Of a stretch of 64,000 nucleotides of DNA, positions 22,904 through 60,965 are shown piece after piece. Where the stretch lies: the IMG/VR virus record IMGVR_UViG_3300042534_000747, one strand, 5' to 3'. Within the stretch, counting starts at the first letter, position 1. Each line of letters opens with the position of its first letter. The stretch is from a virus. The position numbers were made by a program, and so were the translations under genes. Below the pieces are notes generated by a model. It saw only the letters and a program-made list of their open reading frames with translations, ran no database searches and was not told the DNA's origin.

Positions 22904-24679
22904 TTAATTTTTCTTTTTATTGCCTTGATTTTGATTTTCATTGTAAACAATTAAAAGTAATCCGGCAATTATCATTCCATACATTGTTTGTGCTGTTGAA
23001 TTCATATTTAATATATTTTCAAACAATAAAGCTAAAAATTTATTATCATCATCTTCTTTTACATTTTCATTAGTAATTGGTGTATTTTCTTCTACATAAT
23101 CATTTAAATCATCATACACTTTAACTATTTCTGGATTTGCTTCTACAACTGCATCTACTTCTGCTTCTGCTTCTGCTTCTGCTTCTGCTTCAGGTTCAGT
23201 GGGGGTTGTTCCTGCACCAGATTTACTTGCTTCAATTGTATTACCGTATGCACCTATATTGATTCTACCACCGTTGTTGTCAGGTTCATATTCAAAATTT
23301 GAAAGAGGATTACCTGCATCAATTAATGGAGAAATTGTTTCTGAAATTACCCATGAATTTCCATTCCAACTTCCATATGTTGATTTTAAGTGGAAATCTG
23401 CTTTTGCTGAATCATAAGATGGATATACAAATTCAGGGTCTAAATTAGTATTATGTGTTCCCCATACAATATTTGAATTGCCATCAGTTGCATCCATACC
23501 ACCATACCAATTGTTGTAATCAGCATATACAATATGTTTAGGAGAATTGACAATGCTATAATATTTAATCATTTCATAATTAGTATCTGTATTTTTACAA
23601 ATATTATTGTTAAAGTAAATTTTCATATCCCAATTTGTATCATCATGGTATGGATATGGTGAATAAATACTAAGGATACCACCCTGAAATACACCAAAAA
23701 TTACATTGTTTTCAATGACAACATTTGTAAATCCTGATACTGAAATAGCACCTTGTAGGTCAGATGTTCCATCATGGTTTACATCATAGAATACATTATT
23801 TAGAACATATATATTCTTTGCAGAATTTGAAGATGTTATATGTTTACTATCATATATTGCACCACAAATATAAACTGCTGAATCACATATATTATGGAAT
23901 TCATTATCTTTTATAAGTATGTTGTATGTTGGATAATAATCTACCCATCCTTTAATGTATACTGTTCCGTATCCACTAATTGCATTACCTGCACCCCATA
24001 TTTCATTATTCAAAATGTTTACATCATGTGATAATTCAATTCTAAATGCTGTATTTACCCAATGGTCACCACGATTATTAGTAATATCCATATTATTACA
24101 TTTGTTTAACCAAACATTTTCGTGACCTGATTCAAAGAATTCACAATTATTTACAAGTCCATTACTGCAAGATTCAAAATATACAAAATCCATTGCATTT
24201 TCATGTAAATACATATCTTCTACAACTACATTATCACAATTTACGAATTGGAACATTCTGTATAAATACATACCTCTAACCAATTCATCATTGTTAGCAT
24301 AGTTTCCATCAACTTCAAAGCCATGAACATATAAATCATCATAACCATTAGCATTGAACATTGTTTTATATGCTCCCCATAATGCATTATTTTTTAATTT
24401 AACAATTGCATTTGAGTCACCTGTTAATTCAGTACCTCTCATACTAAATCTTATAGTATCGCCTATAACATATGTTCCACTTTTTAAGTATACTGTTCCA
24501 TCAACACCTGCTGCACTAATAGCTTGATTGATTTGAACTTCATCATTTGTTCCATCACAATTATACGTTCCACTGCCATCTCTTGCAACTGTAACTGTTG
24601 AAGCAGATGCCATAGACATTGAAAACAATAAAATCAATGTAACTATCAATATTTTTATATTTTTCATTTTTTTAACCAT
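22904..24679 (-). CDS. secreted right-handed parallel beta-helix protein (Methanosarcinales disaggregatase-related type)
   Basis: Signal peptide; TVTVARDGSGTYNCDGTNDEVQINQAI; DFHLKS...SPLIDAG...EP..NGGRINIGAYGNT; C-terminal TM anchor. Confidence 0.8.
   Translation of the reverse strand: MVKKMKNIKILIVTLILLFSMSMASASTVTVARDGSGTYNCDGTNDEVQINQAISAAGVDGTVYLKSGTYVIGDTIRFSMRGTELTGDSNAIVKLKNNALWGAYKTMFNANGYDDLYVHGFEVDGNYANNDELVRGMYLYRMFQFVNCDNVVVEDMYLHENAMDFVYFESCSNGLVNNCEFFESGHENVWLNKCNNMDITNNRGDHWVNTAFRIELSHDVNILNNEIWGAGNAISGYGTVYIKGWVDYYPTYNILIKDNEFHNICDSAVYICGAIYDSKHITSSNSAKNIYVLNNVFYDVNHDGTSDLQGAISVSGFTNVVIENNVIFGVFQGGILSIYSPYPYHDDTNWDMKIYFNNNICKNTDTNYEMIKYYSIVNSPKHIVYADYNNWYGGMDATDGNSNIVWGTHNTNLDPEFVYPSYDSAKADFHLKSTYGSWNGNSWVISETISPLIDAGNPLSNFEYEPDNNGGRINIGAYGNTIEASKSGAGTTPTEPEAEAEAEAEAEVDAVVEANPEIVKVYDDLNDYVEENTPITNENVKEDDDNKFLALLFENILNMNSTAQTMYGMIIAGLLLIVYNENQNQGNKKKN
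23158..23193. repeat. (CTTCTG)5+1 hexamer repeat encoding an EAEAEAEAEAE linker
   Basis: Seen directly. Confidence 0.9.
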
Positions 24680-56206: not shown

Positions 56207-56483
56207 TTGATTAATTATAAAATTTTTGGTTTCAATTTAAGTAGAGATTATGAAGGAAATTTTTATGGTGATGGAACATATGAAACAAAATATTTAGTGA
56301 TTCTTAGACATGATTCTTCAGATAAAAATATAGTTAAAGCATTAAGGGATATTGGATTTTTTTAGAAAAGGAATACATTCTACTAATTATAAAATAAGCG
56401 GTGATACTGAAAAATCGTTGATAATTAAATCTGCTAAGAGTGGAATGTTTATATGTGAATTAAGAAAAATAAATGATTATTAG
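56207..56483 (+). pseudogene. small gene with a 1-bp insertion in a T7 run (about 91 aa if repaired)
   Basis: ggtga SD plus TTG at 56207. Span is 277 nt (3n+1); removing one T at 56357-56363 restores the frame. Confidence 0.45.
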
Positions 56484-58717
56484 TCATTTATTTCTATACC
56501 TTTTTCTTCAAAGTACATATTTCTTGCATCAATGATGCTTGTTTTTGAAGGCAACTCATTATTTAGCATTTTTTGTCTACACCATCCATAAAAATAATTA
56601 TCGAATGCAGTATATAATTTGCTTTCATGTGGCTTGCCATTCTTCAGTACTATATCGAATGCACCACGAAGGTTTTTCCATGTATTATAGAAATGTCCTT
56701 TTGTTTTGGTCATGAAGCCTGTTGCATCTTCAATCACAAAACCTTCAACATATTCATTATTGTATTTGTAATTTTCAGAATTGACTTCATTATATAGTTC
56801 AAGGAAATCTTCTATATTGTCTACTGTATAGCAAAGTTCCTTTACTTCAATACCTAATTCATTGCCTAATTTTTGAACTTCATCATATGGAAGTTTTTCA
56901 TATTCAAATGTCCTTCTAACTAGGTCAAGTAAGATGATTTTTGGTTTTGAGTATTCAATTATATGAGGGTCTTTTTCAGGATGAATAACTTCAAAAATTG
57001 CACTAGTATTATTTATTTTATTATAATTTTTGAGAAATTCACGCTTTTCTTCTGTAACGGAATCATTGAATATTTCTTCAAATGTAAGTGCATAATTACC
57101 TGCATTATTTGAATATTCTTTTGCATCATATGATTTTGATGAAATGAATAGTTTGTCAAATTCACTGTTGTAACCTATAATTCCTAAAAATCCATTATAT
57201 TTTAGGTAGAATTTTACAGGGAACTGTAGATTCTTAATTAATTGTGAAAGTTGCACTTCAGGTATATTTCTCTGGTCTACATTGAAGAATTTTTCATATG
57301 AACGTGATACTATTTCAAGTGTACTAAGATTTATGAAAAGTCCTCTTGCTTTGATTGTCTGACTATTCCATTTATTGTTTCTAAATACTGAACTGGTAAA
57401 ATTATATGATATAACATTATCAGATAGAGCACGTTTATTAATATTGTTATTTGAATTTAACAAATTAATTATTTCATTATAAGATTTATTTAATGGTAAT
57501 TCAGTTCTTTTTTCATAAACCTTAAATACTGTATTTTTGATTTCAATAGGTGTGAAACCTGTGGAATCTAGTGTAAGGCATCTGAGATTACCACCTGATT
57601 CAATTTCATGGTTCAGATTGAAACATCTGTCATTGATTTGAATAGGGTCAAGTAATTTGTTTCTATGTCCGTGTACCTGATATGTATCATTAGGAGAATG
57701 CTTCATGAAGGCATTATTTACAATATTCATATCATCATACATACCAACTCCACGAATCATCTCATGGCAAGCTATGAAAGCTATGTTTTCAGGCATCTTA
57801 GAGATTCCTGCATGGGTTACAATTACATTTTTGTCATGGAATTTGTAATATAGGCATGGATAGAGCTTGCGATAGAACATTCTTGCATCTTTCTTTGTGA
57901 ATCCTGCATTAACAAGTTGATGAACTGTTTTATGCATAAATTCTTTAGATGCATATCTTGTTTCTGTTTCATTTGAATATCCCCAATTTTTCAAATGAAT
58001 TTCATGATTACCTTCAAGCATAACTACATTAGGCATGTTGATAATGCTTTTTAGGAAATTCATTACTTCACCATTTTCAATACCTCTATCAATATAGTCA
58101 CCTACAAAAATATAAAATTCATTAGGGTCAATTCCATTTTTGAGGTATTCCTGAAGAACTGTATTGCATCCATGAATATCTCCAATGTGATGAATTTTTT
58201 TGTAATTTGAAAGGTCTGTGATTTTGGTTTTAAATGTTTCATTAAAATCTTCAGGTTTAATTACAGTTACAAATGATTGTGGTTCAAGAACTTCAAACCT
58301 TGCATTCATCTTTTCAAGTACATCTTCAGGTACAAATTTATATTCTTCTCTATTTTTGTTTCTACGCTTTACTTCTTCAAGAGGTATGTCTGTAAAATCA
58401 AGTGCATAAACTCTATATTTGTATTTATCAGTGAGATTTTTGTATTTTTTGTAATCTTGGGTTCTGGAATGTGTAGCATCAATAATAATGAATTCTCCAC
58501 GTTCCATACGCTTTTCTACAAGCTCCATTATGAGTTTCCATACATAATTATCATTAAATTGAGAAATTCCATCTGTGCCATCAGGCATCTGTATAGGTGA
58601 CTGAACTAAAAGTCTAATAGAGTCTGCACTAATGGTATATTTTTCAAGATTATTATTTTTTAGGAAAGTGGATTTTCCACATCCTGCTATTCCTCTCATG
58701 AGTACTAAATTTTTCAT
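56480..58717 (-). CDS. RNA-repair fusion: polynucleotide kinase + calcineurin-like phosphoesterase + T4 Rnl1-like RNA ligase
   Basis: GIAGCGKST and DATH; GDIHG, GDYIDRG, GNHE, HAG, HGH; ARGLF, RSYEKFFN, KYNG, EGFV, KTK; start set at ATG 58717 after ggtga. Confidence 0.9.
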   Translation of the reverse strand: MKNLVLMRGIAGCGKSTFLKNNNLEKYTISADSIRLLVQSPIQMPDGTDGISQFNDNYVWKLIMELVEKRMERGEFIIIDATHSRTQDYKKYKNLTDKYKYRVYALDFTDIPLEEVKRRNKNREEYKFVPEDVLEKMNARFEVLEPQSFVTVIKPEDFNETFKTKITDLSNYKKIHHIGDIHGCNTVLQEYLKNGIDPNEFYIFVGDYIDRGIENGEVMNFLKSIINMPNVVMLEGNHEIHLKNWGYSNETETRYASKEFMHKTVHQLVNAGFTKKDARMFYRKLYPCLYYKFHDKNVIVTHAGISKMPENIAFIACHEMIRGVGMYDDMNIVNNAFMKHSPNDTYQVHGHRNKLLDPIQINDRCFNLNHEIESGGNLRCLTLDSTGFTPIEIKNTVFKVYEKRTELPLNKSYNEIINLLNSNNNINKRALSDNVISYNFTSSVFRNNKWNSQTIKARGLFINLSTLEIVSRSYEKFFNVDQRNIPEVQLSQLIKNLQFPVKFYLKYNGFLGIIGYNSEFDKLFISSKSYDAKEYSNNAGNYALTFEEIFNDSVTEEKREFLKNYNKINNTSAIFEVIHPEKDPHIIEYSKPKIILLDLVRRTFEYEKLPYDEVQKLGNELGIEVKELCYTVDNIEDFLELYNEVNSENYKYNNEYVEGFVIEDATGFMTKTKGHFYNTWKNLRGAFDIVLKNGKPHESKLYTAFDNYFYGWCRQKMLNNELPSKTSIIDARNMYFEEKGIEIND

Positions 58718-58767
58718 TTTTTCACCATTGATTAAACAATGGTTGTAATGATATTTAAAAGTATGCA

Positions 58768-58779
58768 AAAAAAAGAAAT
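58768..58779 (-). terminator. oligo-T terminator downstream of the CRISPR array
   Basis: A-run on the + strand (T-run on minus) about 30 bp past the last repeat. Confidence 0.45.
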
Positions 58780-58809
58780 TAATGAAGCCATTTTGCTTCA
58801 ATGTAGCCA

Positions 58810-59126
58810 GTCACAATTCAACATTGTTGGAATAATGTATTGTAACACCAGACAACAAAATAAGAAATATCAAAAGAAGCATAAGTCACAATTCAACATA
58901 TTTGAAATGTTGTATGACAACTAATCCATTCAAAAGAAGAAGAAGTTATATGTTAACATCACAATTCAACATTGTTGGAATGTTGTATTGTAACATTTAG
59001 TATGAGTCCTGATTGTCACAATTCAACATTGTTGGAGTGTTGTATGACAACTCTATTCTTGGTAATGTTGCATGAGCAGTATTATGTGTGTCACAATTCA
59101 ACATTGTTGGAGTGTTGTATGGCAAC
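58810..59126 (-). CRISPR. CRISPR mini-array: 5 x 37-bp repeats, 4 spacers
   Basis: Repeats at 58810-58846, 58885-58921, 58958-58994, 59015-59051 and 59090-59126. Minus-strand consensus GTTGTCATACAACACTCCAACAATGTTGAATTGTGAC. Unique spacers of 38, 36, 20 and 38 bp. Degeneracy is greater toward low coordinates. Confidence 0.88.
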
Positions 59127-59285
59127 ACTGTAATGTATATTGTTTTTATTTATACAACATTTAGTTGATGTTGATTCTTGAATCATTGATTTCCTAATGG
59201 AACATCTCAAACAAGCTCACCCCATATGTGCTACGGTGTATATGATTATTAATTATTTGAATTGTACTTGGTTATCGTACAAGTC
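59127..59285 (-). ncRNA. putative tracrRNA / omegaRNA-like leader RNA
   Basis: Own TATA at about 59304-59315. Hairpins TTGTAC/GTACAA and CCGTA-gcaca-TATGG; nested CTTG..TTGA..TTCC-atta-GGAA..TCAA..CAAG; repeat-complementary segment at 59152-59174. Confidence 0.6.
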
Positions 59286-59302
59286 ATATAATGTACGTTA
59301 TC

Positions 59303-59316
59303 ATATATAAATGTTC
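59303..59316 (-). promoter_or_regulatory. archaeal BRE/TATA driving the leader-array transcript
   Basis: Minus-strand AGAACATTTATATATG, matching the box found upstream of many minus-strand genes. Confidence 0.65.
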
Positions 59317-59360
59317 TGTAAGAAAAGAAATCTTGTATTTATAAAGAAAAAAATAAAAAT

Positions 59361-60566
59361 TCAACAAGAAATAGGTGCTGAATTTTTGATATTGATTGCT
59401 GCATTAATATCTCTATCATGAGTTGTATTACATGATGTGCATGTCCATTCTCTGATATTTAATCCCATTTTAGCAGTTTTTGTCCCACATACATTACAGA
59501 TGTGAGATGTTGCTTTCCATTGGTCTACTTCAATGACTGTTTTGCCTTCATATTCTGCTTTATATCGGAGTTGTCTGAAAAATTCACTCCATGATACATC
59601 TGCAATTGCTTTTGAAAGTTTTGGATTTTGCATCATTCCTTTTATGTTGAGGGTTTCAATTGCAATACAGTCATAGTTAGTTACTAATTCTTTTGAAATG
59701 TTGTGTTGGAAATCAGAACGTTGATTTGCAATTTTCTCATGGCAAGATGCAATAATTTTATTTTGTTTATGCCAATTATTTGAAAATTTTTGTTTTCTTG
59801 ATGCTCTACGTTGTAGTTTTGCAAGTTTCTTTTGTGAGGAAACAAAATATCTATTATTATCTATTTTTTTGCCATCTGAAAGAATTGCAAAATGAGTTAA
59901 TCCCATATCAATACCTATTGTGGTAGAATCGTTGTAGGGTATTTTTGGCATTTCAGGTAATCCATCTTCTACAAGAATTGAAATATAATATTTTCCTGAA
60001 GATGTTTTTGAAATTGTAGATGTTTTAATTAAATATTGGTCTGAAATTTTGAAGGTTTCACCATTATCATATGAAATCCAACATTTATTTTTAGATTGTT
60101 TAATTACATCAAAATTAGAATTTTCAAATTTTCTATGTAATCTACATTCAATTAGAGTTTTTAATTTTGGAATATTTATATATCCAGTTTTGAAGTTAAT
60201 TGAATAATTTTGATAAAATTGAAATGAATTACCTGATTTTTTATTTTTAAATTGAGGATATCCTACATCTATACCCTTTTTTTGCCCTCTAAAGAAATTT
60301 TTATATGCTGTATCAAGGTTACGCAATGTATATATTAAGCTTCCTGAACTAGCTTCTGAAATAAAAGGGTATTGTTCTTTCCATACACTGCTAATTAAAT
60401 CTTGACAATCTGATGGAAACATTGATTGATGTGCATTTTGATACATGAATGAACATGTATGCAATGATTTATTCCAAATGAATCTACAACAATCAAAATT
60501 TATTTTGAAAAATTCCTTCTGTTCTTCAGTTGGATAAATTCTATATTTATATGCTTTTAGTACCAT
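59361..60566 (-). CDS. tnpB: TnpB-family RNA-guided endonuclease, CRISPR-associated (Cas12f/V-U-like candidate)
   Basis: KAYKYRIYPTEEQ N-terminus; RuvC-I IGIDMG; RuvC-II IAIETL; CNVC...CTSC Zn finger; RuvC-III DRDINAAINI; no tnpA nearby. Confidence 0.9.
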   Translation of the reverse strand: MVLKAYKYRIYPTEEQKEFFKINFDCCRFIWNKSLHTCSFMYQNAHQSMFPSDCQDLISSVWKEQYPFISEASSGSLIYTLRNLDTAYKNFFRGQKKGIDVGYPQFKNKKSGNSFQFYQNYSINFKTGYINIPKLKTLIECRLHRKFENSNFDVIKQSKNKCWISYDNGETFKISDQYLIKTSTISKTSSGKYYISILVEDGLPEMPKIPYNDSTTIGIDMGLTHFAILSDGKKIDNNRYFVSSQKKLAKLQRRASRKQKFSNNWHKQNKIIASCHEKIANQRSDFQHNISKELVTNYDCIAIETLNIKGMMQNPKLSKAIADVSWSEFFRQLRYKAEYEGKTVIEVDQWKATSHICNVCGTKTAKMGLNIREWTCTSCNTTHDRDINAAINIKNSAPISC

Positions 60567-60596
60567 ATTTTAACCTGTGAATGTTATAGGTCAATT

Positions 60597-60623
60597 AATG
60601 GTTGTTCTAATATTTAAATGTTT
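60597..60623 (-). promoter_or_regulatory. element-type promoter of tnpB
   Basis: aatggttgttct-aa-tatttaaatgtttg; the aatggttgttct motif also precedes TATA boxes at 6514 and 34228. Confidence 0.6.
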
Positions 60624-60686
60624 GTTAAAAAAGAAAAAAAGAAAATTGAGTAACAAATGGATTATTATGGTATTGCAACCAATAAC

Positions 60687-60965
60687 TTACTGTAAATTTT
60701 CCCAATTATTTAATAATTCCTTTGCTTTTTTATCATTTGTAGTTCTTACAAAATCTAAAACTTCACTTAAATAAGGTTGTGTTCCATTATATATAATGAA
60801 ATAATGTACTCTTCTATCAATACGATTTATTTTTTCCATTTTGGTATAATATCTCAAAACATGAATTTTTCCTTTAAATGTTTTAAAATATTCTTTCATC
60901 ATAGAACCATTTGACATTACAGCACTTAATTGAGTTTGTTTTGATTTAACCATATTTTCATACAT
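60687..60965 (-). CDS. hypothetical protein
   Basis: 92-aa ORF. Confidence 0.5.
   Translation of the reverse strand: MYENMVKSKQTQLSAVMSNGSMMKEYFKTFKGKIHVLRYYTKMEKINRIDRRVHYFIIYNGTQPYLSEVLDFVRTTNDKKAKELLNNWENLQ

Follow-up and report, generated by a model that had tools for sequence, protein, structure and literature searches.

Nucleases of about the size of TnpB that are associated with CRISPR arrays have been reported under the name TranC. Such systems are described as carrying 3-20 repeats of 32-38 bp and as lacking adaptation genes (bioRxiv 10.64898/2026.03.27.714800; Jin et al., Cell 2025 as cited in PMC13565253), and the TranC guide RNA is proposed to be split into a tracrRNA-like part and a crRNA part (bioRxiv 10.64898/2026.03.27.714800; PMC13565253). 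CauTranC9, which is TnpB-sized and resides on a Caudoviricetes genome, has an array of five 38-bp repeats to which no Cas accessory genes are linked (bioRxiv 10.64898/2026.03.27.714800). Mini-arrays with host-type repeats are also known in archaeal viruses (PMC11656645).

The locus described here lies in the window, by which we mean the whole 64-kb stretch of DNA that was analysed, from a contig of 202.5 kb. It consists of a tnpB-like gene and, 234 nt downstream on the same minus strand, an array of five 37-nt direct repeats (Table 1). The locus is like TranC in its RuvC nuclease of near-TnpB size with the catalytic residues kept, in the short array adjoining the gene on the same strand, and in that no adaptation genes were found among the ORFs scanned. 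It differs in that the solved LaTranC matches the RuvC part of the protein only and ISDra2 TnpB matches far better. A further difference from TranC is that the leader between gene and array keeps a complete terminal hairpin and that the host looks archaeal; since that hairpin is retained, the guide RNA appears here to be duplicated and not cleanly split as in TranC. With IS200/IS605 TnpB and its single omegaRNA (ISDra2 type) the locus shares 46-50% protein identity and a leader that fits the omegaRNA model. In contrast to such elements, however, no tnpA was found, the scaffold stands farther from the stop codon, the tail of the leader has been lost, and five copies of a hairpin plus tail are present. 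Cas12f (V-F) and Cas12n (V-U4) are likewise small TnpB-derived effectors with a tracrRNA between the effector gene and the array and with repeats of ~36-37 nt, but comparison with PADLOC profiles and PDB chains revealed no specific similarity to them beyond the general similarity to TnpB.

Judged from its sequence, the locus is on balance probably a miniature type V-like CRISPR system of the TranC kind, derived from TnpB and carried by an AT-rich element that resembles a virus, in which the repeats are tandem copies of the P3 hairpin and tail of an omegaRNA. Intermediates between transposons and CRISPR systems have already been described; what we rate as unusual here is the apparently archaeal nature of the element and a leader in which the ancestral scaffold, including P3, still stands. 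If functional, this would be a very small (401 aa) RNA-guided nuclease system on an archaeal virus-like element, and arrays could grow by duplication alone. The ancestral omegaRNA scaffold and the repeats apparently derived from it can both be read in one locus, so that the proposed path by which the right-end RNA of a transposon gave rise to tracrRNA and crRNA becomes directly testable on a single natural example.

Table 1. Positions of the gene, the leader elements, the repeats and the spacers in the window, listed in minus-strand order
Feature	Position	Strand	Evidence
tnpB-like gene, 401 aa, encoding an apparently intact RNA-guided RuvC nuclease	59361..60566	(-)	Pfam, conserved residues
T-rich run that follows the tnpB stop directly; putative terminator of archaeal type	59343..59359	(-)	
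TTTATATA, TATA-box-like, ~65 nt upstream of the omegaRNA-like scaffold	59304..59311	(-)	
Leader: omegaRNA-like scaffold with helices P1, P2, P3; proposed tracrRNA-like partner	59145..59238	(-)	covariance models
Leader P3 hairpin UCAACAU-CAACUAA-AUGUUGUAU, proposed to double as anti-repeat	59152..59174	(-)	covariance model alignment and inverted repeats I2/I5
Repeat R5, first on the transcript, GUUGCCAUACAACACUCCAACAAUGUUGAAUUGUGAC	59090..59126	(-)	
Spacer S4, 38 nt	59052..59089	(-)	
Repeat R4	59015..59051	(-)	
Spacer S3, just 20 nt	58995..59014	(-)	
Repeat R3, best hairpin; last base U	58958..58994	(-)	
Spacer S2, 36 nt; opens with a degenerate repeat 3' end, then a copy of the start of S1	58922..58957	(-)	
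Repeat R2; 3 of its 4 changes in the loop	58885..58921	(-)	
Spacer S1, 38 nt, T-rich	58847..58884	(-)	
Repeat R1, last on the transcript, without a spacer after it; most diverged (6 differences)	58810..58846	(-)	
Terminator-like hairpin (58800-58783) and T run, directly after R1	58775..58800	(-)	

The TnpB protein and the omegaRNA-like leader

Pfam analysis of the protein identified the TnpB domains HTH_OrfB_IS605, OrfB_IS605 and Cas12f1-like_TNB, the last supplying a zinc ribbon, and both the RuvC residues D220/E304/D386 and the two CxxC pairs of the zinc finger fall in invariant columns of the alignment. Its nearest relatives, many of them from Methanosarcinales, are the ordinary TnpBs at 46-50% identity mentioned above. 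Among proteins of solved structure the best relative was ISDra2 TnpB (E 2.6e-61), as compared with E 5e-30 for the match of LaTranC, confined to the C-terminal RuvC part, and E 1e-5 to 1e-7 only for the solved Cas12f chains. PADLOC profiles for Cas12u4 and Cas12f also match the protein, yet they score ordinary TnpBs equally or higher, and such matches are therefore uninformative on membership. No REC or WED expansions were found in the protein beyond an insert of ~30 aa (window 60030-60125, minus strand); this insert is also present in two ordinary relatives (P0008 and P0011) and is thus not specific to the array-linked TnpB.

The leader was compared with the omegaRNAs of related loci. In 19 Firmicutes loci an omegaRNA follows right after the tnpB stop and is made up of three helices (P1, P2 and P3) and a tail, GUAGUUCAC, beyond which conservation ends, with compensatory changes in 12 of the 20 omegaRNA pairs. 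Of 89 related loci, which came from bacteria, archaea and viruses, 61 were found by a covariance model to have this RNA right after the stop codon, and a second model was built from the 61 matches. Firmicutes, methanogens, cyanobacteria and viral contigs all have this well-conserved family immediately behind tnpB (L010-L089; for instance L010:3646-3791 and L027:3607-3700).

When the whole window was searched on both strands, the leader (59238-59145, minus strand) was the top match of both covariance models and was matched over the full model length. The scores were 12.5 bits (E 0.13) with the first model and 15.3 bits (E 0.084) with the second, for which the next-best match reached 8.9 bits. 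In a stretch of 621 nt comprising the intergenic region and its flanks the E value was 8e-4. At 15.3 bits the match has a modest score, and it reaches significance only if the search is confined to the place where the RNA is expected. A blastn comparison of the leader with the regions downstream of tnpB in the relatives matched the coding part alone, the homology being visible only with covariance models, and Rfam reported no family at gathering score in the locus, its matches at E up to 10 being at chance level. The scaffold begins 123 nt past the tnpB stop, as against ~10-30 nt in the relatives, and lies behind the T run and the TATA-like box. TTTATATA can only be put forward as a putative TATA box, since the motif is common in the AT-rich window (64 copies).

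P3 of the model aligns to UCAACAU/AUGUUGUA of the leader, and the same 6-bp CAACAU/AUGUUG stem, with the same loop size of 7 nt, recurs in the inner hairpin of the repeats. At the position where the relatives have the conserved GUAGUUCAC/A, the leader has UAUAAAUAAA, and the guide-adjacent tail has thus been lost in the leader; every repeat, by contrast, keeps a constant tail, AAUUGUGAC (AAUUGUGAU in R3). Given the shared stem and loop size and a tail that is lost in the leader but constant in the repeats, we read the repeats as duplicates of a P3-plus-tail module. Individual repeats gave no score against the omegaRNA model, and the link from repeat to P3 rests on identity with the P3 stem of the leader.

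Variation and folding of the repeats

The five copies of a 37-mer claimed in the original prediction are present, and its counts of differences from R4, namely 1 in R5, 5 in R3, 4 in R2 and 6 in R1, were reproduced in our alignment (A4). For a 14-mer taken from the repeat, 0.17 copies would be expected in the 64-kb window; 5 were observed, all of them inside the array, and no copy of the repeat core was found elsewhere in the window. The suggestion that the repeat might belong to a dispersed family of REP or IS-end hairpins has to be divided: an origin from an IS end, here the IS605 right end with its omegaRNA, is supported, and dispersal within the window is not. The heterogeneity that had been noted among the repeats is real, at 84-97% identity to R4. 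In contrast to a canonical adaptive array, the repeats of this locus are not near-identical and its spacers are uneven (20-38 nt).

The partition of the 37-mer as 8-1-6-7-6-1-8 exists when the repeat is read on the minus strand (GUUGUCAU-A-CAACAC-UCCAACA-AUGUUG-A-AUUGUGAC), and on this structure standard pairs fill 91% of the pair cells, as against 26-55% when the partner strand is slid. As had been pointed out, R1 and R3 have GUUACAAU in common, which makes the outer stem perfect, the three-base block turning G.U, U.G and C/U into A-U, C-G and A-U, and R1 carries two changes that weaken the inner stem; it is the only repeat in which that stem is broken. Each repeat was then folded as minus-strand RNA. 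R3 gave a fold of -12 kcal/mol (z -3.8) that was equalled by 0 of 200 shuffles, the folds of R1 and R2 were marginal (z about -1.7 against shuffles), and R4 and R5, which are near-identical and proximal to the leader, folded no better than shuffled sequences (z -0.13 and -0.39). The description of the repeats as full-length hairpins therefore holds clearly for R3 only; it is marginal for R1 and R2, and is not confirmed for R4 and R5. Energies were also computed with all 14 pairs forced, but such values are meaningless where pairs are non-canonical, and they were set aside.

The original prediction had also held that the variation is structure-aware and reflects selection on the RNA fold. Selection would then act on the full-length 37-nt hairpin as a whole, which might serve in processing or in the binding of a protein, and would shape the differences between copies through the fold. 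This agrees with the excess of standard pairs over slid alignments, with the improvement of the outer-stem pairs by the three-base block of R1 and R3, and with the finding that random mutants of R4 carrying an equal number of changes seldom retain as many pairs as R3, R2 and R1 (p 0.001-0.04). That comparison, however, assumes R4 to be ancestral and hinges on the choice; with R3 as the ancestor, we estimate that the same differences would look like plain decay. Moreover, not a single pair is changed on both sides, every change being one-sided, and the folds of R4 and R5 are like those of shuffles. The block shared by R1 and R3 is common to them by descent and is counted as a single event, and 5 of the 7 variable stem sites are transitions opposite a G/U-rich strand, so that pairing is kept automatically, without selection. 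With changes that are one-sided, folds of R4 and R5 that are weak, a test that depends on the ancestor and transitions that preserve pairing, structure-aware variation is a suggestion and not a result. We consider it improbable that the whole hairpin is what selection has preserved.

The variation is distributed unevenly along the repeat. In the minus-strand reading the variable columns of the five repeats are 4, 5, 6, 12, 13, 15, 17, 21, 22 and 37, that is, nine of the ten lie in positions 1-22 and the tenth is the last base, while positions 23-36 (ATGTTGAATTGTGA; as RNA, AUGUUGAAUUGUGA) are invariant in all five. The hypergeometric probability of finding at most one of ten variable columns in the last 15 positions is P=0.023, for a partition that was picked post hoc. 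This asymmetry is compatible with constraint on a guide-adjacent handle. Our reading is that the heterogeneity reflects uneven constraint, on the handle as against the rest of the repeat, together with the history of duplication, selection on the whole hairpin not being demonstrated.

Predicted pairing of leader and repeats, and proposed growth of the array

The predicted duplexes between the leader and the individual repeats had energies of -13.8 to -20.1 kcal/mol, whereas shuffled repeats gave about -7. Relative to the leader and repeat hairpins folded separately, duplex formation was predicted to gain -6.6 to -7.7 kcal/mol for R5, R4 and R2, -3.6 for R3 and -2.2 for R1. As a palindromic stem is common to both hairpins, complementarity between leader and repeat is largely automatic. 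The part of the pairing that is not automatic lies in the flanks, where the repeat hairpin has an A.A mismatch and the leader hairpin a U.U mismatch, both of which are converted into A-U pairs in the heteroduplex, and by our own count the flanks alone discriminate (~5/6 versus 3/6 matches). As modelled, the pairing of the leader with the repeats is compatible with a tracrRNA-like role.

If the locus is indeed TranC-like, the leader and the array would be transcribed on the minus strand from the TATA-like box to the hairpin and T run after R1, which form the sole terminator-like site in 58600-60800. Each repeat would be a copy, in tandem with the others, of the module at the 3' end of an IS200/IS605 omegaRNA, consisting of the terminal hairpin P3 and the guide-adjacent tail. 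Its invariant 3' portion (AUGUUGAAUUGUGA, in most cases with C next) would supply the 3' arm of P3 and the tail beside the guide; this portion would pair with the 5' arm of P3 in the leader RNA, and AUACAACA of the repeat with AUGUUGUAU of the leader. TnpB would bind this two-piece scaffold and would be guided by the 16-20 nt that follow each repeat. The array would have grown by duplication and not through Cas1-Cas2, and the 5' part of the repeats, together with the terminal R1 that is not followed by a spacer, would be under weaker constraint, giving rise to the heterogeneity observed. A bolder proposal, which we put forward tentatively and with some doubt, is that the birth of a CRISPR array has been caught in the act. 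The omegaRNA scaffold would still be intact, its terminal hairpin and tail would have been duplicated four to five times with guide segments and without Cas1-Cas2, and the old P3 would have become the anti-repeat; this would have happened independently of the solved TranC lineage and on an archaeal virus.

Growth by duplication, which had been suggested in the original prediction, is backed by two observations. The first is the inner stem common to the repeats and to the omegaRNA hairpin of the leader. The second concerns spacer S2, which on the minus strand opens with a degenerate repeat 3' end, after which the first 15 nt of S1 recur in copy, and so repeats the R2/S1 junction; the identity between S2 and this junction is 23/30 (direct-repeat family D3), and the best window was reached by only 1 of 500 shuffles. 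A degenerate half-repeat in S4 (11/16) was also considered and was rejected as not above chance, 0.56 such matches being expected.

Targets of the spacers were sought in several collections. The spacers have no self-targets in the 64-kb window, and exact 20-mer searches gave no protospacers for the first 20 nt of S1-S4 in IMG/VR or of S4 in JGI metagenomes. BLAST of the leader and array against phages and plasmids returned chance matches only. The best match from a BLAST search of 151 genomes of the Methanolobus family paired 27 of the 38 positions of the T-rich S1 with a chromosomal ORF in Methanosarcinales (E 4.5e-4 per genome), and was judged to be due to chance.

The results on spacers and leader bear on another explanation, according to which the IS605 right end was duplicated in tandem and the repeats are its decaying copies with no guide function, and TnpB, if active, uses the single omegaRNA of the leader. 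The leader retains a complete P1-P2-P3 scaffold, and its complete P3 counts against the TranC-like reading, in that TnpB might use only this single canonical omegaRNA. Decay would also be in keeping with repeats of just 84-97% identity, with spacers of 20-38 nt of which S2 is partly a duplicate, with the lack of protospacers in the collections searched, and with the finding of no such array in any of 150 related TnpB loci. The uneven spacers with their partly repeat-derived S2, the lack of protospacers and the lack of comparable arrays in relatives also speak against the TranC-like reading, as do the modest score of the covariance match and the largely automatic pairing of leader and repeats. 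Against decay stand the identity of positions 23-36 in all five copies while the rest varies, and the constant tail of the repeats where the leader, with UAUAAAUAAA, has lost the GUAGUUCAC of its relatives; in addition, the block is bounded by promoter-like and terminator-like elements of its own. On this evidence we regard a fossil duplication as unlikely.

Adaptation genes, host and related loci

The original prediction had doubted that the array was extended by Cas1-Cas2, and genes for cas1, cas2, cas4 and tnpA were indeed not found among 41 ORFs scanned with Pfam, a set made up of all those in the window that reach 220 aa and of the ORFs that flank the locus. It had also asked whether the repeat belongs to a known host CRISPR type. 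The repeat was looked for, and no match emerged: a 31-nt repeat pattern allowing up to 3 mismatches was absent from all 284 genomes of the order of Methanolobus, the presumed host order, and relaxed repeat patterns (two of them in IMG/VR) found nothing in IMG/VR or in JGI metagenomes. These results weigh on the explanation that the array is a viral mini-array borrowing the CRISPR-Cas machinery of its host, as a decoy or against competing viruses. Such an array would have precedents in the host-type mini-arrays of archaeal viruses cited above, and would be in keeping with the lack of adaptation genes among the scanned ORFs of the window. The repeat, however, was found neither in the genomes of the order nor in the viral and metagenomic collections, and its stem is that of P3 in the neighbouring omegaRNA, and we hold this explanation to be very improbable.

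Arrays or tandem repeats lie near two of the related TnpB loci, and both were rejected as unrelated. In Spirulina subsalsa (L013:3474-4900) the TnpB element ends in GGGGTAGTTCAC, and ~226 nt farther on begins an ordinary CRISPR array of the host, the 37-nt repeats of which end in ATTGAAAC; here an IS has inserted next to the leader of an array, which is not derived from TnpB. In the second case (L121:3990-4230), 4-5 near-identical 60-bp tandem units without unique spacers lie ~300 nt beyond a viral TnpB element, and this plain tandem repeat is probably a coding repeat.

The ribosome-binding motif in the window is mostly GGTGA, with GGTG in 15 of 56 ORF upstream regions and GGAGG in 0 of 56. 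Together with the TATA-like boxes, the GGTGA sites point to an archaeal host. A recurrent motif, ATACCATTAACACCTATTATATCATTGTAGGTGAA...ATG, is seen upstream of many ORFs of the window. For a 591-aa protein with a beta-helix and a disaggregatase-related region (window 22904-24679, minus strand), the best relatives with a name come from Methanolobus, Methanococcoides and Methanomethylovorans, and these relatives suggest a host in the Methanosarcinales; the host is thus probably a Methanosarcinales archaeon. The protein itself is a candidate host-surface depolymerase or receptor-binding protein.

Downstream of the array lies a 773-aa ORF (window 56480-58801, minus strand) whose product is a fusion of a kinase (AAA_33), a metallophosphoesterase and a T4-type RNA ligase 1. 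It was called from a TTG at 58801, and its start is probably the ATG at 58717 (MKNLVLMRG...); the first 84 nt of the ORF as called overlap the terminator-like hairpin of the array.
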